Source: an uncultured Gemmatimonadales bacterium (GTDB lineage: Bacteria; Gemmatimonadota; Gemmatimonadetes; Longimicrobiales; RSA9). Taken from it: a stretch of 64,000 bases of DNA. The stretch spans positions 4,160,001 through 4,224,000 of the forward strand of contig OY970192.1 of the NCBI GenBank assembly GCA_963708135.1, read 5' to 3'. A program made the translations under genes and the position numbers. Positions 6,345 through 14,658 of this stretch are shown here, piece after piece. Within the stretch, counting starts at the first letter, position 1. Every line of letters begins with the position of its first letter. The notes under the pieces are model-generated. The model was not told where the DNA came from. It searched no databases and saw only the letters and a program-made list of their open reading frames with translations.

Positions 6345-7445
6345 ATGGCTGGGAACGGCGATGCGGCGCGAGGCTACGCGCCGCACGGCAAGGATACAGG
6401 GATCGTGAAGTCGAAGGGGACGGCGCGGCTGCCGATCCTCGAGGGTGAGGCACTGCCGCTCACGACGCGCAAGCCGCAGTGGCTGCGCGTCCGCTCGCCC
6501 GGCGGGCCGAACTACCTGCGGCTCAAGAGGCTCATGCGAGGTCAGCGCCTCCACTCCGTGTGCGAGGAGGCGGGCTGCCCGAACATCGGCGAATGCTGGG
6601 AGGCGGGAACGGCGACGTTCCTGATCCTTGGGGATGTGTGCACGCGGGCGTGCAAGTACTGCGCGATCGCGCATGGCATGCCGACGGAGCTGGACTGGGA
6701 CGAGCCGAGGCGGGTGGCGGAGGCGGTGGCGGCGCTGGAGCTCGCGCACGTCGTGGTCACGAGCGTGAACCGCGACGAGCTGGCCGACGGCGGCGCGGCA
6801 GTGTTCGCGGCGCTGATCGAGCAGACGCGGGAAGTGCGTCCCGAATGCACGATCGAGGTGCTGATCCCGGACTTCAAGGGGGATGAGGCGGCGCTCGAGA
6901 CGGTGGTTCGCGCGCGGCCGGACATCCTGGCGCACAACCTCGAGACGGTGGAGCGGCTGCACCCCTGGGCGCGGCCGGGTGGACGGTACTGGCGGAGCAT
7001 CTCGCTGCTCGGCGCGGCCAAGCGAATGGACCCGGGCATGCTCACGAAGTCGGGGCTCATGCTGGGGCTGGGCGAGGCGCGGGAGGAGATCCGGCGGGCG
7101 ATGGCGGACCTGCGCAAGGCGTCGGTGGACATCCTGACGGTGGGGCAGTATCTGCGCCCGTCCAGCCACCACGCTCCGGTGGCGCGCTTCGTCACGCCCG
7201 AGGAGTTCGGGGAGTGGAAGCGGGTGGGGGAGGCGGAGCTGGGCTACCGTCACGTGGAGTCGGGGGCGCTGGTCCGCTCGAGCTACCATGCCGAGAGGCA
7301 GGCGCGCACCGTGCAGGCGGGCGGGGTCGGGGAGATCGCCGAGATCCTCGAGGCCGACATCCCCGCGCCCGCCGAGATCGTGAACGCGGCAGAGGCTCGC
7401 GGGCTCGTCCAGCTGGAGGATCGGCGCGAAGCGGCGGGCGGCTAG
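6345..7445 (+). CDS. lipA: Lipoyl synthase
   Basis: RKPQWLRV, CEEAGCPNIGEC (CX4CX5C), CTRACKYC radical-SAM motif, LVRSSYHA. Confidence 0.97.
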   Translation: MAGNGDAARGYAPHGKDTGIVKSKGTARLPILEGEALPLTTRKPQWLRVRSPGGPNYLRLKRLMRGQRLHSVCEEAGCPNIGECWEAGTATFLILGDVCTRACKYCAIAHGMPTELDWDEPRRVAEAVAALELAHVVVTSVNRDELADGGAAVFAALIEQTREVRPECTIEVLIPDFKGDEAALETVVRARPDILAHNLETVERLHPWARPGGRYWRSISLLGAAKRMDPGMLTKSGLMLGLGEAREEIRRAMADLRKASVDILTVGQYLRPSSHHAPVARFVTPEEFGEWKRVGEAELGYRHVESGALVRSSYHAERQARTVQAGGVGEIAEILEADIPAPAEIVNAAEARGLVQLEDRREAAGG

Positions 7446-7597
7446 GCGAAGCATCGAGACGGCCGTTCCCATCCGGAGCGGGCGAGCGGGGAGAGCCGGG
7501 GACGGCTCCCCGCCCTCCCGCTTCTTGTTGGCGGATGCAGTGCTCGAAGAGGGCGAGACGAACCGGCGGCGGGCGCGTCGCCGACAGGGAGTGCCCC

Positions 7598-8683
7598 ATG
7601 GCGGATGCGAAGACCACCACGAAGAAGACGCAGGCGACGGCCAGCGGCAACGGCCGGCAGCTCGGGGGGCTGGATGAGGAGGCCCTGCTGGAGCTGCTCC
7701 GGAAGATGCTGCTCGGGCGCCGATTCGAGGAGAAGAGCGCCGAGTCGTACGCGCTCGGCAAGATCGGCGGGTTCTGCCACCTCTACATCGGGCAGGAGGC
7801 GGTGGCGGTGGGCGCGCTGAGCGTGCTGCGGCCGGACGACTACGTGATCACGGCATACCGTGAGCACGTGCAGGCGCTGGTGAAGGGAGTGCCCCCGAAG
7901 GCGGTGCTGGCGGAGCTGTACGGGCGGGTGGACGGCACATCCCACGGCAAGGGCGGCTCGATGCACATCTACAGCGCCGAGCACAATTTCATGGGCGGGT
8001 GGGGGATCGTGGGCGGGCAGATCCCGATGGCGACCGGCATCGGCTGGGGCATCAAGTACCGGGAGGAGGACCGGGTCTGCCTGTGCTTCCTGGGGGAGGC
8101 GGCGGTGAACCAGGGCGCGTTCCACGAGTCGCTCAACATGGCGGCGCTGTGGAAGCTGCCGGTGATCTACATCGTGGAGAACAACCGCTTCGGGATGGGC
8201 ACGGCCTGGGAGCGGGCATCGTCGCTGTACGACATCGCGCAGAAGGCGCACGCCTACGACATGCCGTCCTCGGTAGCCGACGGCATGGACGTGTTCGACA
8301 TGCGGGCGAAGGTGCAGGAGGCGGTCGGGCGGGCGCGCTCCGACTCGACGCCGACGCTGATCGAGGCGCGCTGCTACCGCTTCATGGGACATTCGATGTC
8401 GGATCCGGTGAGCGGCGTGTACCGGACGAAGCAGGAGGTGGAGGAGGCGAAGAAGAAGGATCCGATCCGGATCTTCATCGACCGGGTGAAGGATGGGGGG
8501 ATGCTGTCGGACGAGACGCTGCAGGGAATCGACGAGGCGGTGAAGCGGGAGGTGGAGGAGGCGGCCGAGTTCGCCGACCAGTCGCCCGAGCCGTCGGCGG
8601 AGGACCTGTACAAGGACGTGTACGCGGAGCTGAACGAGCACGGCCGCCTCTTCTTCGACCGGCAGGACCGGGTGGAGGGCTAG
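7598..8683 (+). CDS. pdhA: Pyruvate dehydrogenase E1 alpha subunit
   Basis: GKIGGFCHLYIGQEA, GKGGSMH, GEAAVNQGAFHESLN TPP-binding region, YRFMGHSMSDP. Confidence 0.95.
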   Translation: MADAKTTTKKTQATASGNGRQLGGLDEEALLELLRKMLLGRRFEEKSAESYALGKIGGFCHLYIGQEAVAVGALSVLRPDDYVITAYREHVQALVKGVPPKAVLAELYGRVDGTSHGKGGSMHIYSAEHNFMGGWGIVGGQIPMATGIGWGIKYREEDRVCLCFLGEAAVNQGAFHESLNMAALWKLPVIYIVENNRFGMGTAWERASSLYDIAQKAHAYDMPSSVADGMDVFDMRAKVQEAVGRARSDSTPTLIEARCYRFMGHSMSDPVSGVYRTKQEVEEAKKKDPIRIFIDRVKDGGMLSDETLQGIDEAVKREVEEAAEFADQSPEPSAEDLYKDVYAELNEHGRLFFDRQDRVEG

Positions 8684-8686
8684 CCG

Positions 8687-9670
8687 ATGTCCACGATCAC
8701 GTACCGCGAGGCGCTCAACGCCGCGCTGGACGAGGAAATGGCGCGCGATCCCGATGTCTTCCTGATGGGCGAGGAGGTCGGGATGTACAACGGCGCCTAC
8801 AAGGTCTCGAAAGGGCTCCTCGAGAAGTACGGTGAGAGACGGGTGGTAGACACGCCGATCACGGAGCTCGGCTTCACCGGGCTCGGCGTGGGCGCGGCGA
8901 TGGTGGGGCTGCGCCCGGTCATCGAGTTCATGACCTTCAACTTCTCGCTCCTGGCCACCGACCAGGTGTTCAACAGCGCGGCCAAGCTGCACTACATGAC
9001 GGCGGGGCAGTTCAGTTGCCCGATCGTCTTCCGCGGCCCGACCGGCGCCGCGCTGCAGCTCTCCGCCCAGCACTCGCAGGCGCTGGAGTCGATGTACGCG
9101 CACTTCCCCGGCCTGAAGATCGTCACGCCGGCGACCCCGGCGGACGCGAAGGGGCTGCTCAAGGCGGCGATCCGGGACGACGACCCCGTCGCCTTCTTCG
9201 AGGGCGAGCTGCTCTACGCGCTGAAGGGGGAGGTCCCCGATGACGACGACTACGTGGTGCCGCTCGGTGTGGCCGACGTGAAGCGGGAGGGCGGCGACGT
9301 CAGCATCATCACGCACGGCAAGATGGTACATGTGGCGTTGCAGGCCGCGGCGCGGCTCGAGCGCGATGGCGTCTCGGCCGAGGTGCTGGACCTGCGCTCG
9401 CTACGCCCGCTGGACGTGGCGGCGATCCGCGCGACGATCTCCAGGACGAACCGCGCGATCTACCTGGAGGAGGGCTGGCCTTACATGGGCGTGGGCGGCT
9501 CGATCGCGAGCATCATCCAGGAGGAGAGCTTCGACGACCTGGACGCGCCGGTGCTGCGGGTGACCCAGGCCGACGTGCCGATGCCGTACAGCAGGAACCT
9601 GGAGAAGCTGGCGAAGCCGTCGGTGGAGCGGGTGGTGGAGGCGTGTAACAGGGTGATGTACAGGGATTAG
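8687..9670 (+). CDS. pdhB: Pyruvate dehydrogenase E1 beta subunit
   Basis: ITYREAL, GEEVG.YNGAYKVSKGL, DTPITE.GF, EFMTFNFS, AQHSQ. Confidence 0.95.
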   Translation: MSTITYREALNAALDEEMARDPDVFLMGEEVGMYNGAYKVSKGLLEKYGERRVVDTPITELGFTGLGVGAAMVGLRPVIEFMTFNFSLLATDQVFNSAAKLHYMTAGQFSCPIVFRGPTGAALQLSAQHSQALESMYAHFPGLKIVTPATPADAKGLLKAAIRDDDPVAFFEGELLYALKGEVPDDDDYVVPLGVADVKREGGDVSIITHGKMVHVALQAAARLERDGVSAEVLDLRSLRPLDVAAIRATISRTNRAIYLEEGWPYMGVGGSIASIIQEESFDDLDAPVLRVTQADVPMPYSRNLEKLAKPSVERVVEACNRVMYRD

Positions 9671-9721
9671 GGGATCCTGAATCCCTGGTCCGGCCCGTGG
9701 TCCCCGGAACACGAGGTGAGG

Positions 9722-11149
9722 ATGGCGACGAAGGTCCACATGGAGGCGCTTTCCCCGACCATGGAGGAGGGGCAGCTGGTCCGCTGGCTGAAGCAGGAGG
9801 GGGACCAGGTGGCGGAGGGCGACGTTCTGGCGGAGATCGAGACCGACAAGGCCACCATGGAGCTGGTGGCGCGAGGCGCGGGGGTGCTCCGGAAGCAGCT
9901 GTTGCCGGAGGGCGCGAGCGCGCCCGTGGGCGCGGTGATCGGCGTCGTCGCGGGGGCGGACGAGGACATCTCCAGCATCCTTGCAGAGGCGCCGACGAGC
10001 GCCGGGCAGCCGGCCCATGGCGGGGAGTCGGAGGCGGCGCCGGAATTGGCCGCGGCGGCGGCGGTATCGGCGGCCGGTGAGTCGGAGCGGGACGAGGCGG
10101 CCGCCGGCGTCCAGGCTGCCGTGCAGGCGCCGAGCCGCCCCGCCACACCGACTCCCCCGTCCGCTCCCGCCGGACGTGCATCCACGCCGGCGAGCGGCGG
10201 CGAGGCCACGGGGAACGGGGCAGAGCGCGGCGGCCGGGTAAAGGCTTCGCCGCTCGCGCGGCGACTAGCCGCCGAGGCGGGGCTCGAGTTGAACTCGGTG
10301 CGTGGCACGGGTCCGGGCGGGAGGATCACGAAGCGCGACATCGAGGGCGCGCGCGAGCGGGCGCCGCAGCGCGGGGCGGCCGCGCCCGCGGCGGCGGCAG
10401 CGCGTGGCGCAGCGCCCGCGGCCGCGGCCGCCCCGGCGCTCCGCGAGGCGAGCGAGCGGCCGGAGGTCGAGGAGGTCCCGGTCAGCCAGATGCGGAAGAC
10501 GATCGCGAAGCGGCTCGTCACCTCGATCGGGCCGGTGCCCACCTTCTACCTCACCGTCGAAGTGGACATGGGGCACATGAGCGAGGCGCGGGCGCGGATC
10601 AACGACCGACTGGCGGCGAGCGGCCAGAAGGTCTCCATCAACGACCTCCTGATTCGCGCAACGGCCGAGGCGCTGCGGCGGCACCCCGAGGTGAACGCGG
10701 CCTGGGGCGAGACCGTGATCCGCCGCTACGGCCGCGTGCACATCGGAATGGCGGTGGCGGTCGAGGACGGGCTCATCACACCCGTCATCCGGGATGCCGA
10801 CCGCAAGGGCGTGGCCCAGATCGCCCGGGAGGCGCGCGAGCTGGCGGCGCGGGCGCGCGACCGGAAGCTCACCCCCGAGGAATACACGGGCGCGACCTTC
10901 TCGATCTCGAATCTCGGGATGCTCGACATCGATGAGTTCACCGCGATCATCAACCCGCCCGAGGCTGCCATCCTGGCCGTCGGACGGGTGGAGGAGAAGC
11001 CGGTCGTCGTGGACGGGCAGGTGGTGCCGGGCAAGCGCATGCGCATGACCATGAGCTGCGATCACCGCGTGGTCAACGGCGCCACCGGCGCGCGCTTCCT
11101 CCAGACGCTGCGCGCGTTCCTTGAGGAGCCGACAATGATGCTGGTATAG
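9722..11149 (+). CDS. pdhC: Dihydrolipoamide acetyltransferase (E2)
   Basis: Lipoyl domain IETDKA, E3-binding [21 protein letters not shown], catalytic DHRVVNG. Confidence 0.95.
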
Positions 11150-11167
11150 GCGAAGCGAGCAGGTCCT

Positions 11168-11463
11168 GGATGCAAGAACCCCCGCCGCCAGCCGAAGCCG
11201 GACGTCGGGGGTTCTTGCCACTGGCGAGGCTCGGGTCCGCTGAGGTTCGGGGCCACGCCGCGAGGCGTGCCCGGATCCCGTGTCTCTCTGCCCAGCACCG
11301 CGCGGTCTGCGGGTGGGGCGCCCCTGGCCGGGGGCAAACGGCTGCGGCCAGTAACCTCGCAGCCGACTCGCCGGGTCCGAACGTCCGACGAGCATGTCTC
11401 GCGAAAAGCGTCCCTTTCGGAGACGACGTCCCTGGCCGCGAAGACCGCCGGCCGTTGACGTCT
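11168..11463 (-). ncRNA. Candidate ~300-nt structured non-coding RNA, family not recognised
   Basis: Upstream TTGACG-N17-TATCCT promoter, several stems with GAAA and UUCG tetraloops on the minus strand, a terminal hairpin, and no convincing short ORF. Confidence 0.55.
11172..11218 (-). terminator. Strong hairpin (13-bp outer stem, inner cUUCGg tetraloop on minus strand); may terminate in both directions
   Basis: GCAAGAACCCCCG (11172-11184) pairs with CGGGGGTTCTTGC (11206-11218). The inner stem has a G-U pair only on the minus strand. Confidence 0.65.
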
Positions 11464-11469
11464 GCGACA

Positions 11470-11498
11470 AGGATAAGCGTCTTGGCGTGCGCCGTCAA
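11470..11498 (-). promoter_or_regulatory. Putative sigma70-type promoter driving the antisense RNA candidate
   Basis: Minus strand TTGACG (11498-11493), 17-nt spacer, TATCCT (11475-11470). Confidence 0.65.
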
Positions 11499-11560
11499 GG
11501 CCTTCTTTCAGGCCCACAAGCCGTTGTTATGAAACAAGATGCTGGACTGGTGGGAAATGT

Positions 11561-11728
11561 TGTGGAAACCTGGAACGGCGGTGGAGCGGCAACATTCCTT
11601 CGCCGTTCGGGTTAGCGGTTTGTAACGATTGGATCCACAGGTTTCTTCAATTTTTCTACAGGTTTTCCACCGCCGTTCGGCCGTTGTCCACGTGGGCCCC
11701 GGGCTTTGTTCACGCGCTGTGTGGAAAA
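11561..11728. promoter_or_regulatory. Cluster of DnaA-box-like 9-mers in an AT-enriched patch (candidate oriC or DnaA-binding locus)
   Basis: TGTGGAAAC 11561, GGATCCACA 11631, TTTTCTACA 11652, TTTTCCACC 11663, TTGTCCACG 11684, TTGTTCACG 11706, TGTGGAAAA 11720 (reverse complement TTTTCCACA matches TTWTNCACA). Confidence 0.6.
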
Positions 11729-11821
11729 TGGGCGGGCGGAGCGGCGGTGGGCCGAGGGCGCGGCTGCCGGACGTCGCGGGGCGATGGCTCCGCAGGTGGC
11801 CCCGGGGGGCGCCGGGAGCGA

Positions 11822-11850
11822 TTGTCCGGGCCTGGGCGGCGTCGTAGTAT
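11822..11850 (+). promoter_or_regulatory. Putative sigma70-type promoter for lpdA
   Basis: TTGTCC-N17-TAGTAT, 40 nt before the lpdA GTG start; GAGGTG RBS. Confidence 0.55.
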
Positions 11851-11890
11851 TGGAAGCTACGAGCGAAACACTCCGAGTGAGAGGTGAGGC

Positions 11891-13288
11891 GTGGCGGAGA
11901 ACACCTTCGACCTGATCGTGATCGGGGCGGGGCCGGGCGGTTACGTTGCGGCGATCCGCGCGGCGCAGCTGGGGATGCGGGTGGCGTGCGTGGAGGCGGA
12001 CAAGCTGGGGGGCGTCTGCAACAACGTGGGGTGCATTCCGACGAAGGCGCTGCTGGAAGCGGCAATGTACGCGCGGCGGATTCCGGAGCTGAAGGAGTTC
12101 GGGATCACGGTGGCGGATGTGAAGCTGGACCTGGGGCGGGCGGGCAAGCGGGCGAAGACGGTGGCGGGCCAGGGGTCGAAGGGGGTGGGCTACCTGTTCA
12201 AGAAGAACGGAGTGGAGCCGGTGTCGGGCTGGGCGCGTCTCGTGGGGGGGGGCAAGGTGGAGGTGGAGGGCTCGGAGGGGAAGCGGACGCTGACGGCCAA
12301 GGCGATCATGCTGGCGACGGGGTCACGGCCGAAGTCTTTGCCGATGCTGAAGATCGACGGGCAGCGGGTGTGGAGCTCGGATCAGGCTGTGTTTCCGACG
12401 GAGGCGCCGGGGACGCTGGGGATCATCGGCGCGGGGGCGATCGGAATGGAGTTCGCGGACGTGTACAACGCGTTCGGCACGAAGGTGACGCTGGTGGAGG
12501 CGATGGAGCAGGTGCTTCCGCTGGAGGATGCGGATGCGGCGAAGGTGGTGGAGAAGGCGTTCAAGAAGCGGGGCATCGAGGTGATGACGGGCGCGAGGCT
12601 GGAGAGTGCGGAAGTGGGGAAGCAGGGGGTGAAGCTGGTGGTGAAGACGAAGGGGGGCGAGGAGAAGGCGGTCGAGGTCGAGCGAGTGCTTGTGGCAGTC
12701 GGCCGGGCGCCGATCGTGGAGGATGTGGGGGCGGAGAAGGCGGGCGTGAAGGTGGAGCGGGGCTTCTTCCAGGTGGATGACCAGCTGCGCACGACCGCGG
12801 CGGGGGTCTGGGCGATCGGGGACTGCGCGCGGCCGCCGCTGCTGGCGCACAAGGCGTCGCACGAAGGGATCGCGGTGGTGGAGGCGATCGCGGGCGTCGG
12901 TCACGGGATGGTGGACTACGACAACATCCCGAGCGTGACGTACTGCCATCCGGAGGTGGCGTCGACGGGACTGACGGAGAAGGCGGCGCGGGAGAAGGGG
13001 CTGGACATCGAGGTGGGGGTGTTCCCGTTCAGCGCGAACGGCCGGGCGCGCACGGCGGGGGAGACGGAGGGGTTCGTGAAGGTGATCCGTGAGAAGCGCT
13101 ACAGCGAGATCGTGGGCGCGCACATCGTGGGCCCGCACGCGAGTGAGCTGATCGCCGAGTTCGTGGTGGGACGCGAGCTCGAGACGACGGCGGAGGAGAT
13201 GGACCGGGCGATGCACCCTCATCCGACGCTCTCGGAGGCGGTGGCGCAGGCGGCGCTGGCCTCTCTTGGGCGCCCGATCGACCTGTAG
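11891..13288 (+). CDS. lpdA: Dihydrolipoamide dehydrogenase (E3)
   Basis: GAGPGGYVAA, GGVCNNVGCIPTK redox disulfide, GAGAIGME, HPHPTLSE. Confidence 0.97.
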   Translation: MAENTFDLIVIGAGPGGYVAAIRAAQLGMRVACVEADKLGGVCNNVGCIPTKALLEAAMYARRIPELKEFGITVADVKLDLGRAGKRAKTVAGQGSKGVGYLFKKNGVEPVSGWARLVGGGKVEVEGSEGKRTLTAKAIMLATGSRPKSLPMLKIDGQRVWSSDQAVFPTEAPGTLGIIGAGAIGMEFADVYNAFGTKVTLVEAMEQVLPLEDADAAKVVEKAFKKRGIEVMTGARLESAEVGKQGVKLVVKTKGGEEKAVEVERVLVAVGRAPIVEDVGAEKAGVKVERGFFQVDDQLRTTAAGVWAIGDCARPPLLAHKASHEGIAVVEAIAGVGHGMVDYDNIPSVTYCHPEVASTGLTEKAAREKGLDIEVGVFPFSANGRARTAGETEGFVKVIREKRYSEIVGAHIVGPHASELIAEFVVGRELETTAEEMDRAMHPHPTLSEAVAQAALASLGRPIDL

Positions 13289-13293
13289 CGGCG

Positions 13294-14658
13294 ATGGAGG
13301 CGGTGCCTTTCCTGTCCGCGATTCTGGCGCACGAGGCGCCTGCCGTCGGCGGGTATGCCCGGGGCGAGGTGCGTCCCCGGCCGAAGGGGTGGGCGGCGGT
13401 GGCGGTGGGGGCGGCAGGGCTGGTCACGGCGACGGTGCTCATGCTGCGGGATGCCGCCCCGTTCGCGACGATGTACTACGTGTTCGCGTGGTACAGCACG
13501 CTGCTGGCGCTGTATGGCGTGCTGGCACTGGTGTCGGGCCGGTCGCCGGCGCTGCGGCGGCCGGCGTCGCTGGCGACGATGCTCGGCTGGTCGGTCGTGG
13601 TGTGGCTGTTCTTCGAGCTGCTGAATCTGCGGCTGCGGGATTGGTACTACGTGTTCGTGCCGAGGGAAGGGGCGGTGCGCTGGGTCTACATTGCCGTCTC
13701 CTTCGCGACGGTCCTGCCGGCGGTGTTCGGCGCCGAGGCGCTGCTGGAGGGATTGGGCGTGGCGGAGCGGGCGCGCTGGCCGCGGCTCCGTGTGACGCCG
13801 CGGCTGCTGCGGGGGGTCCGCGCGGCCGGCGCGCTGGCGCTGGTTCTGCCGCTTCTCTGGCCGCGCTGGTTCTTTCCGCTGGTGTGGGGCTCGGCCACGC
13901 TGTTGCTGGAGCCATCGGTGTACCGGCGGGACCCGGCGCGCTCGCTGCTGCACGACCTGGAGGAGGGCCGACCCGGGCGGATGCTGCGCATCCTGCTCGG
14001 CGGAGCCGCGATCGGATTCCTCTGGGAGATGTTCAACATCCGTGCGCGTGGGAAGTGGATCTACACGGTTCCCGGCTTCGACGACGGCAAGCTGTTCGAG
14101 ATGCCGGTGCTGGGGTTCTTCGGGTTTCCGCCGTTCGCGGTGGACTGCTATGTGATGTGGCAGCTGCTGGTCGTGCAGGGGCTCGCGGTGCCGCTCGCGG
14201 GGCGCCCGCTGCCGGCGCGCCGGCTGAAGCGCTGGGGCAGCGCGCTGGGGGCGGTGGCGTTCAGCGCCGTGGTCCTGCGGGGGATGGAGGCGCGCACGAT
14301 CTCCTCGGTCGCGCCGCGACTCTCGGACGTGCCCGGGATCCCGGCGCCGGCGCTCCGCGACGCCGGCTACGACGTTTTCTCGCTCAGCTCCGCGTCACCG
14401 GCGGCGGTGGCGCTGGCCACGGGCGCGAGCCCGGAGGAGTCGGCGCGCTGGGTGTCGGCGGCGCGGCTGGTCACCCTGCGGGGGATCGGCACGCGCAACG
14501 CGCGCGACCTGATGGCGGTAGGGATCCAGTCGCCCGGCAGGCTGGCGGCCGCGGACCCGGCGTGGCTCGCCCGCGCGCTGCGCGCGCGGACCGGGCGGCC
14601 GGTGGTGGATGCGCGGCTGCGCGTCTGGATCCGCGCCGCGCGCGCGGCCACTCCGTAG
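13294..14658 (+). CDS. Polytopic membrane protein with C-terminal DUF4332-like (helix-hairpin-helix) domain
   Basis: Multiple hydrophobic segments, LWEMFN..KWIY..KLFEMPVLGFFGFPPF; C-terminal LVTLRGIG..L.AVGI...RVWIRAAR. Confidence 0.7.
   Translation: MEAVPFLSAILAHEAPAVGGYARGEVRPRPKGWAAVAVGAAGLVTATVLMLRDAAPFATMYYVFAWYSTLLALYGVLALVSGRSPALRRPASLATMLGWSVVVWLFFELLNLRLRDWYYVFVPREGAVRWVYIAVSFATVLPAVFGAEALLEGLGVAERARWPRLRVTPRLLRGVRAAGALALVLPLLWPRWFFPLVWGSATLLLEPSVYRRDPARSLLHDLEEGRPGRMLRILLGGAAIGFLWEMFNIRARGKWIYTVPGFDDGKLFEMPVLGFFGFPPFAVDCYVMWQLLVVQGLAVPLAGRPLPARRLKRWGSALGAVAFSAVVLRGMEARTISSVAPRLSDVPGIPAPALRDAGYDVFSLSSASPAAVALATGASPEESARWVSAARLVTLRGIGTRNARDLMAVGIQSPGRLAAADPAWLARALRARTGRPVVDARLRVWIRAARAATP

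Follow-up and report, generated by a model that had tools for sequence, protein, structure and literature searches.

A probable stand-alone noncoding RNA gene in a Gemmatimonadota genome and the pseudoknotted RNA family to which it belongs

Analysis of a 64,000-nucleotide stretch of the genome of an uncultured Gemmatimonadales bacterium (contig OY970192.1, positions 4,160,001 to 4,224,000; hereafter the window) revealed that an intergenic interval between the genes pdhC and lpdA of a pyruvate dehydrogenase (PDH) cluster is very probably a stand-alone gene for a noncoding RNA of about 295 nucleotides (nt), belonging to a previously undescribed family restricted to the Gemmatimonadota. At the level of sequence, a promoter, a covarying body and a terminator hairpin lie together on one strand, as in a stand-alone bacterial RNA gene. 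In the predicted fold, seven hairpins (P1 to P7) follow one another and are joined by three long-range pseudoknots. An earlier note on this DNA, made from its letters alone, had proposed a stand-alone structured minus-strand RNA gene of about 300 nt with its own promoter, and the family, its covariation, its promoter and its terminator all bear this proposal out. The note had also recognised no known RNA class in the interval and had suggested a search of Rfam. No Rfam family reached its gathering score anywhere in the window, and at E-values up to 10 none matched inside the RNA interval, the four weak matches outside or beside it lying far below their gathering scores. The novelty stands, since the absence of any Rfam match marks the RNA as a new class. 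The parts of the predicted gene are listed here in window coordinates, with the supporting evidence (R1 being the covariance model described below).

11493 to 11498, minus strand: -35 hexamer TTGACG, with an A-rich stretch GAAAGAAGGCC before it (promoter scan and conservation in homologues)
11470 to 11475, minus strand: -10 hexamer TATCCT (family consensus TATCAT), separated from the -35 hexamer by a 17-nt spacer (promoter scan and alignment)
11170 to 11463, minus strand: predicted RNA of about 294 nt, with a predicted start near 11463 and a 3' end within UUCUUGCAU past the terminator (model R1 and promoter geometry)
11425 to 11462, minus strand: hairpin P1, with outer stem GACGUC/GACGUC and inner stem GGCCG/CGGCC, its loop forming the 5' half of pseudoknot 1 (covariation)
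11448 to 11443 with 11307 to 11302, minus strand: pseudoknot 1, GCGGUC in the P1 loop with GACCGC in the P6 loop (covariation; inverted repeat I3)
11396 to 11424, minus strand: hairpin P2, with a conserved GGACGC apex (covariation)
11366 to 11393, minus strand: hairpin P3, its loop GUUCGG (11382 to 11377) forming the 5' half of pseudoknot 3 (covariation)
11339 to 11365, minus strand: hairpin P4, CGGCUGCG/CGCAGCCG, with an 11-nt loop AGGUUACUGGC (95.5% of cells paired)
11353 to 11347 with 11225 to 11219, minus strand: pseudoknot 2, UACUGGC in the P4 loop with GCCAGUG before the terminator (covariation)
11320 to 11335, minus strand: hairpin P5, GCCCC/GGGGC (91.9% paired)
11298 to 11312, minus strand: hairpin P6, its loop GACCGC (11307 to 11302) forming the 3' half of pseudoknot 1 (94.1% paired)
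11233 to 11279, minus strand: domain P7, with closing helix P7a, hairpin P7b (11269 to 11254) and junction CCGAAC (11250 to 11245) (covariation)
11172 to 11218, minus strand: terminator-type hairpin, with inner stem CCCCCG/CGGGGG, an apical stem and a UUCG loop, then UUCUUGCAU (covariation; inverted repeat I2)

The outer stem of P1 was found to be 88.3% paired, with double changes at all 6 of its pairs, and the inner stem 81.2% paired. Pseudoknot 1, which joins the loops of P1 and P6, is 94.6% paired and contains swaps between UA (36) and CG (31) as well as between GC (63) and AU (12). P2 showed pairing of 88.0% and 89.7%, with double changes at all 11 pairs, and P3 is 87.1% paired, with double changes at 9 of 9 pairs. 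P4 together with its loop is the best-conserved part of the RNA family, and the unpaired A-G-G-U of the loop (11357 to 11354) is at least 90% conserved. Pseudoknot 2 is 90.9% paired; a swap between A-U (36) and G-C (48) within it splits the family into two subtypes, and the C-C-A-G of its 3' half is nearly invariant. Pseudoknot 3, which pairs the P3 loop with the P7 junction, is 91.3% paired; it is largely invariant and shows a few compensatory changes. P7b (CACGCC/GGCGUG) is 83.6% paired, whereas P7a, formed by CGGACCCG (11239 to 11232) and positions 11279 to 11272, is weaker at 73-74%. The terminator hairpin is kept in all members, its inner stem being 99.8%, its apical stem 86.5% and its base 91.9% paired. 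Each of the three long-range contacts joins a site in the 5' half of the RNA to one in the 3' half, and because their order is parallel they cross one another. As a separate observation, the A-G-G-U of the P4 loop adjoins the pseudoknot-forming CUGG and is similar to a ribosome-binding-site core; it is not followed by a start codon.

Several of these elements had been named in the earlier note, namely the helix at 11365 to 11339 (P4), the GCCCC/GGGGC stem (P5), the CACGCC/GGCGUG stem (P7b), the terminal hairpin at 11218 to 11172 and, as an alternative or pseudoknot pairing, GUUCGG with CCGAAC (pseudoknot 3), and each of them was recovered by comparison of homologues. Three further helices of the note gave no covariation signal: the long-range pairing of CGGACCCG (11379 to 11372) with CGGGAUCCG, the pairing of GGCGAG with CUCGCC, and a GAAA-capped stem at 11425 to 11409. 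Jointly, 63.0% of their cells were paired, against 63.0% in shuffled alignments, and 258 of 500 shuffles reached this value. The second CGGACCCG copy, which had been thought to compete for the same partner, is itself the better-supported partner of positions 11279 to 11272 (P7a), albeit with only 73-74% of cells paired. Pseudoknots 1 and 2 had been missed altogether.

The local hairpins were derived by consensus folding of 19 sequences, while the three long-range loop pairings were first spotted by eye in the alignment and then recovered by a blind scan of all column pairs. In a MAFFT alignment of 45 sequences (A3, evaluated with a 92-pair model), 87.6% of cells were paired against 79.1% in shuffled controls, with 0 of 500 shuffles as high; sliding the 3' partners by 1-3 columns lowered pairing to 35-45%, and compensatory change was seen at 64 pairs. 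The covariance model R1, built from nested helices only (295 positions, 71 pairs), aligned 105 matches, 92 of them distinct. Among these 92 sequences, 89.8% of cells were paired (72.0% when shuffled and 36-44% when slid), percentages that are inflated for the nested helices because the alignment was fitted to them, whereas the MAFFT-based count and the pseudoknots, which lie outside R1, are free of this bias. Double changes occurred at 83 of 90 pairs in the same alignment (shuffled mean 64.9), and the covariation score was 0.456 versus 0.178 after shuffling. The conservation and covariation in relatives for which the earlier note had suggested looking were thus found, as a covarying fold in 92 distinct sequences. 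Its other suggested control, folding against dinucleotide shuffles, also came out in favor of the RNA: the minus strand of 11168 to 11465 has a folding energy of -166.5 kcal/mol (z = -3.52), with 1 of 200 shuffles as good, while for the plus strand of this interval z was -2.35 and 5 of 200 shuffles did as well. G-U cells number 588 and A-C cells 178 (3.3:1), and this excess of G-U, together with the orientation of the conserved promoter and terminator, fixes the RNA strand as minus, the strand that the note had preferred on the basis of tetraloops and a single G-U pair.

Three covarying long-range Watson-Crick contacts would look alike whether they formed within one molecule or between molecules. 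The loop-loop pairings could accordingly be read as intermolecular, building an RNA-only homo-oligomer as described for ROOL, GOLLD and OLE (according to PMC12286853, large bacterial RNAs form homo-oligomers), or the knotted core could be that of a ribozyme. The multiple copies may suggest that large amounts of the RNA are needed, and the compensated change in pseudoknot 2 between the two subtypes would prevent mixing. We consider either possibility quite improbable: at about 295 nt the new RNA is far smaller than ROOL, GOLLD and OLE, the parallel order of the contacts also fits a single-molecule fold, and no cleavage or ligation site or processing signature is visible in the sequence. The broader idea of a catalytic or self-assembling core, that is, a new large ribozyme or an RNA-only particle peculiar to the Gemmatimonadota whose paralogues would be kept apart by compensated contact changes, is given a similarly slim chance.

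The stand-alone RNA gene that we favor is further supported by its predicted boundaries. A promoter scan returned 2 sites in 1.2 kb versus 0.1 +/- 0.3 in shuffled sequence, and these include the minus-strand TTGACG-N17-TATCCT (11498 to 11470) already proposed in the earlier note, which is conserved in homologues. The TTGAC core is kept among homologues while the spacer is divergent. Upstream regions matching the sigma-70 consensus at 8 or more of 12 positions at the right distance were found for 45 of the 93 distinct sequences, compared with 12 of 465 control segments, and scores of at least 9/12 for 32 of 93 compared with 1 of 465. In the 36 best-aligned promoters with a 17-nt spacer, the T-T-G of the -35 hexamer and the T, A and last T of the -10 hexamer are invariant, and an A-rich stretch precedes the -35 hexamer. 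R1 matched the window copy at 11170 to 11465 with 234.9 bits and all 295 positions. Since the -10 hexamer most commonly ends 4 nt ahead of model position 1 (37 of 93 sequences), the start is placed near 11463. Ends at about 11463 and 11170 had been predicted beforehand and are in keeping with the terminator and with the conserved geometry of the promoter. A simple terminator scan did not call the 3' hairpin because a long T run is missing. On the opposite strand, a terminator-like hairpin followed by CTTCTTTCAG at 11479 to 11501 overlaps the promoter spacer of the RNA; 1.4 sites of this type are expected by chance in the region, and the overlapped spacer is not conserved in the other copies.

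When the E2-lpdA gap sequence was searched against its own genome, two further full copies at about 75% identity and one weaker copy were identified, and a profile search followed by the covariance model raised the number of full-length copies in the window genome (G000) to five. Their positions on contig C1 are given below.

C1:4171170 to 4171465: RNA copy 1, the window copy
C1:5256477 to 5256771: RNA copy 2
C1:5366445 to 5366739: RNA copy 3
C1:2165671 to 2165969: RNA copy 4
C1:1437476 to 1437766: RNA copy 5

Similarity among the copies runs from the terminal hairpin to just past the -35 hexamer, and the repeated unit is therefore exactly promoter, RNA and terminator. Three of the five are type A paralogues, the window copy among them, and two are type B copies. 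In the taxonomic family of the window genome, blastn alone detected copies in 12 of 24 other genomes (one of these, G015, unpublished), some in tandem, and the covariance model scored 33 of 41 genomes as positive, with 1-5 copies each and again some in tandem; without the unpublished positives G015, G016 and G019 this count is 30 of 38. Within this bacterial family the RNA family has undergone amplification. Throughout, E-values come from a shortened calibration of R1 and are rough, counts come from sampled genomes, and related genomes are not independent.

Across the phylum, the RNA was found with the covariance model in 21 of 151 sampled genomes, G000 included: in 1 of 1 genomes of family f1 besides the window genome, 9 of 16 in f2, 9 of 31 in f5, 1 of 71 in f4 and none in the other families. 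A second f4 sample, sharing some genomes with the first, gave 1 of 41. It should be noted that the phylum samples were searched with the stricter filters of Infernal, so that "not found" does not equal absent. Blastn alone had given 0 of 16 in two other families of the order, in one of which the covariance model then found 9 of 16. Outside f1, the RNA is nearly always single-copy. A search with the 21-nt P4 motif, using one genome per species, returned 70 loci, 59 of which are true members by profile search; 58 of these 59 carry titles of Gemmatimonadota lineages and one is titled "uncultured bacterium". The 11 non-member loci, from other phyla, hold the motif alone or no match, about nine such chance hits having been estimated by hand from the length of the motif and the size of the database. 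Among metagenome loci with the motif, 50 of 60 are members.

The genomic neighborhoods of the copies differ between the two types. Type B copies, with CGCUGG in the P4 loop, are found in the order E1-beta, E2, LipB, RNA, convergent rnhA and then carA. This arrangement is present in the window genome, in G017, G008 and G039 and partly in four f2 genomes, the order E2-LipB-RNA-rnhA-carA being stable in two families. The type B copy that follows E1b-E2-lipB and is convergent with rnhA is probably ancestral. A different f2 genus has the RNA placed between chorismate mutase and rplU/rpmA at 4 of 4 loci. Type A copies occupy varied places, for example divergent from a PadR gene (two genomes) or within a three-copy array. 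In the window, as in at least six further settings with rnhA, MFS, FAD oxidase, SASA esterase, Lnb_N and DUF5715 neighbors, the next gene runs convergently to the RNA, and because the downstream gene is so often convergent the RNA is not a leader. A cis-regulatory leader or riboswitch was rejected on these grounds, a same-strand downstream gene not being consistently present. As a side observation, the RNA stands beside 2-oxoacid dehydrogenase genes in three settings: between E2 and E3 in the window (9716 to 13288), at the type B E1b-E2-LipB locus, and next to a fused E1 in one genome of another family. The loci concerned are L108 (G000, C1:1434241 to 1437766), L153, L154, L117 and L113; the association was noticed post hoc and may be no more than chance.

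Several copies per genome, some of them in tandem, might suggest a mobile or repeat DNA element, such as a miniature inverted-repeat transposable element (MITE) or a transposon-associated guide RNA, in place of a cellular RNA gene. Two copies 110 kb apart have a 541-bp unit at 98% identity in common (L106, 4914 to 5453; L107, 4882 to 5422), which points to a recent duplication, and the window copy resembles a lineage-specific insertion. Mobility is nevertheless very hard to credit. No transposase, integrase, IscB/TnpB, nuclease or reverse transcriptase was found among 130 neighbor proteins scanned, and the unit is not bordered by terminal inverted repeats (target-site duplications were outside this check). 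Plasmid and phage records contain no match to the RNA, and the sole viral-contig match covers the 21-nt motif only. Further, other families have one copy of the RNA and its synteny there is stable, the predominance of G-U over A-C cells (3.3:1) points to selection on an RNA, and copies of about 75% identity keep the structure by compensatory change. We conclude that the RNA is inherited vertically and is not mobile. Adjoining one of the 541-bp units is a 142-bp tandem repeat of two copies (L107, 4651 to 4931).

The window copy lies in a region of about 70% G+C, among genes for the subunits of the PDH complex that were assigned by Pfam.

7214 to 8683, plus strand: E1-alpha
8687 to 9670, plus strand: E1-beta
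9716 to 11149, plus strand: E2 (pdhC)
11891 to 13288, plus strand: dihydrolipoamide dehydrogenase (lpdA)

The E2-to-lpdA gap measures 741 bp and the RNA gene, on the strand opposite to both flanking genes, occupies its left part and overlaps no coding sequence. As the earlier note had said, no same-strand gene lies downstream; the next minus-strand feature is the antisense of the E2 gene. No Pfam family was found on the four open reading frames (ORFs) scanned among those overlapping the RNA (three others were left out), and the RNA copies are distinguished from one another by 1-2-nt indels, both of which make a coding reading unlikely. Just past lpdA, a 454-amino-acid ORF (13294 to 14658) shows weak sub-threshold Pfam matches to Cdd1 and DUF4332 at its C-terminus.

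The placement between pdhC and lpdA, on the opposite strand, raises the possibility that the RNA controls the PDH operon in cis, as an antisense or regulatory element that would interfere with transcription of pdhC or lpdA or pair with a transcript reading through from one to the other. Other copies beside 2-oxoacid dehydrogenase genes in two further settings would agree with such a role, and the terminal hairpin, which sits 23 nt past the stop codon of the convergent pdhC (E2), could double as a terminator for pdhC transcripts. We regard this explanation as highly improbable. None of 26 lpdA loci in other genomes of the same family holds a copy (three unpublished genomes were left out), and in relatives with E2 directly before lpdA the gap is shorter, measuring 53-361 bp at 10 of 11 loci and 708 bp at the remaining one. 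The other four copies of the window genome have unrelated surroundings, as do most copies elsewhere, and a fold of such intricacy, so conserved, is not expected of a simple antisense RNA. The label "antisense" used in the earlier note is thus not upheld, as there is no coding overlap and relatives occur in many unrelated contexts; its placement of the RNA inside the PDH cluster is correct for this copy, but that placement is peculiar to the window genome and not a property of the family.

The same applies to an array of DnaA boxes that had been noticed beside the promoter.

11561 to 11728, no strand assigned: DnaA-box-like array of six 9-mers with at most 2 mismatches from TTATCCACA, spanning about 170 bp (box scan)

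The array is real: G+C dips to 0.535 there, the lowest value of the region, and it ties for the densest 300-bp cluster in the 5.4-Mb genome with an equal cluster beside dnaA (C1:~4147200). The best boxes belong to a third cluster, at C1:~4156900, and all three fall within 25 kb. The array was also weighed as an origin of replication, a reading that was set aside; the dnaA gene lies 23 kb away, and the local GC skew changes sign near C1:4150000. Six boxes upstream of lpdA in the window genome compare with 0-2 in 22 relatives, and the other four RNA copies lie outside the 12 densest 300-bp DnaA-box windows of the genome. The array is a neighbor of the RNA gene and not part of the RNA family.

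We hypothesize that the noncoding RNA gene works as follows. Transcription would start from a strong housekeeping-type promoter, comprising the A-rich stretch, TTGAC, the 17-nt spacer and a TATCAT-type -10 hexamer, and would end at the GC-rich hairpin followed by UUCUUGCAU. In the fold supported by covariation, the P1 loop pairs with the P6 loop, the P3 loop with the P7 junction, and the P4 loop with the stretch that immediately precedes the terminator. These crossing pairings should lock the molecule into a compact globular body, and a stable RNA would accumulate. The three-dimensional shape formed in this way would then let it act in trans, in all probability on a protein that it binds, and not in cis or by base-pairing to PDH mRNAs. 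The likeliest contact surface would be the P4 loop, where the conserved A-G-G-U is exposed.

A number of points tell against this reading. Besides the inflated percentages of the nested helices, P7a and the inner stem of P1 are moderately supported (73-81% paired), and the covariation is equally compatible with intra- and intermolecular pairing. Upstream regions scoring below 8/12 make up 48 of the 93, so that a recognisable sigma-70-type promoter is not established family-wide; the low-scoring ones looked to be mostly divergent members from other families, as judged from the alignments. We infer the transcription, ends and abundance of the RNA entirely from its DNA, while protein binding, action in trans and the role of the P4 loop are suggested by analogy with other complex-folded bacterial RNAs. 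Finally, the RNA is not universally required, because f4, a large family in the same class, is nearly without it, as given by the two counts above.

The housekeeping RNAs of the genome were looked for separately. RNase P RNA was found at C1:3382505 to 3382908 (257.7 bits) and transfer-messenger RNA (tmRNA) at C1:1854512 to 1854879 (166 bits), and a weak match to signal recognition particle (SRP) RNA lies at C1:953877 to 953973 (32.9 bits, below the 40-bit cut-off). All three were rejected as the identity of the new RNA, as none of their Rfam models matches the interval.

For canonical 6S RNA, the Rfam model RF00013 had no match in 10900 to 12100 at E-values up to 10, nor anywhere in the genome. 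The new RNA might be a functional analogue of 6S and Ms1, that is, an abundant RNA polymerase-binding RNA that tunes global transcription and replaces canonical 6S in this class. A strong housekeeping-type promoter would suit such a role, Ms1 is similar in size to the new RNA, and paralogous copies are known for 6S. The distribution is also complementary. 6S was detected in 11 of 151 genomes of the phylum sample, none of which carries the new RNA: 4 of 13 in f10, 3 of 3 in f11, 3 of 3 in f12 and 1 of 2 in f3 (a hit below the cut-off, in the unpublished genome G026), with none in f1, f2, f4 and f5; the new RNA occurs in f1, f2, f5 and one f4 genome, and no genome has both.

We nonetheless think this analogy unlikely to hold. 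In 6S, the 5' and 3' ends form a closing stem and a large central bubble lies between long irregular helices. 6S also binds the sigma-70 RNA polymerase holoenzyme and serves as template for product RNAs, and the sole, circumstantial pointer to such a property in the new RNA is its complementary distribution. The new RNA lacks the rod with paired ends and central bubble and has a hairpin chain with three crossing pseudoknots instead, and neither 6S nor any other Rfam model matches it even at E-values up to 10. A 6S fold was rejected, since the hairpins are local, the pseudoknots cross, and the 3' end is taken up by the terminator hairpin instead of being paired to the 5' end; the "6S/Ms1-like" label of the earlier note falls with it. 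The complementary pattern itself is weak, given that f4 has neither RNA, that the 6S-defining fold features are missing and that the 6S model is insensitive, detecting 6S in only 4-5 of 14 control genomes. With both RNAs missing from f4, the pattern shows the Rfam 6S model failing in this class and not the new RNA filling a gap. Apart from a single genome, the f4 genomes sampled (71 and 41) contained neither canonical 6S nor the new RNA, and f4 may hold yet another undetected RNA. The 6S-complementary distribution also opens the question of which RNA, if any, stands in for 6S here.

Bacteria of the phylum Gemmatimonadota rank among the most common in soil. It is rare, to our knowledge, for a new bacterial RNA to have a complex fold that includes several covarying pseudoknots, and earlier such RNAs proved to be ribozymes, parts of ribonucleoproteins or self-assembling particles. 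Our search of the literature available to us found no description of noncoding RNAs or RNA biology in the Gemmatimonadota, and two large surveys of noncoding RNAs, of 50 and 26 genomes, do not mention the phylum in their main text. For the family described here, the structural model is well supported and the gene boundaries are clear; some 90 distinct sequences and two natural subtypes are available, and members occur in genomes titled as cultured isolates or complete as single contigs. Together these make its function directly testable.

OLE, ROOL and GOLLD are lineage-specific orphan structured RNAs that were discovered by comparative genomics. Like them, the new RNA has a conserved, intricate and lineage-restricted fold found by covariation, with long-range tertiary pairings in some of these RNAs. 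They exceed the new RNA in size by a factor of 2-3 and come from other phyla or from phages, and none of them gave an Rfam match to it.

With 6S and Ms1, the new RNA shares its stand-alone organization, a housekeeping-type promoter, a presumably high output, a size within a factor of two and paralogous copies, whereas it lacks the rod-with-bubble fold, the pairing of the ends and a match to the model. Ms1 is described as an RNA of Actinobacteria with a 6S-like secondary structure that binds the RNA polymerase core (PMC9130861, PMC4191392). Identity with Ms1 was rejected, as the fold of the new RNA is not 6S-like, its host belongs to the Gemmatimonadota and no Rfam family matched (the presence of an Ms1 model in Rfam being unverified).

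The raiA motif RNA (ModT) is described as a stand-alone RNA of about 200 nt from Bacillota and Actinomycetota, with a consensus of P1 to P6 (up to P8), six major stems, two pseudoknots and 51 highly conserved positions (PMC10861870). The new RNA, at about 295 nt, differs from this description in its seven hairpins, its three crossing pseudoknots, its multiple copies in one family and its phylum; identity was rejected on length, helix count and phylum and because there was no Rfam match at E-values up to 10. According to the same source, the raiA motif RNA likewise has no assigned biochemical function (PMC10861870). It is nevertheless the closest known system in kind: as described there, it is, like the new RNA, a stand-alone, complex-folded and phylum-restricted RNA that is not cis-regulatory and that combines covarying stems and pseudoknots with conserved unpaired bases.

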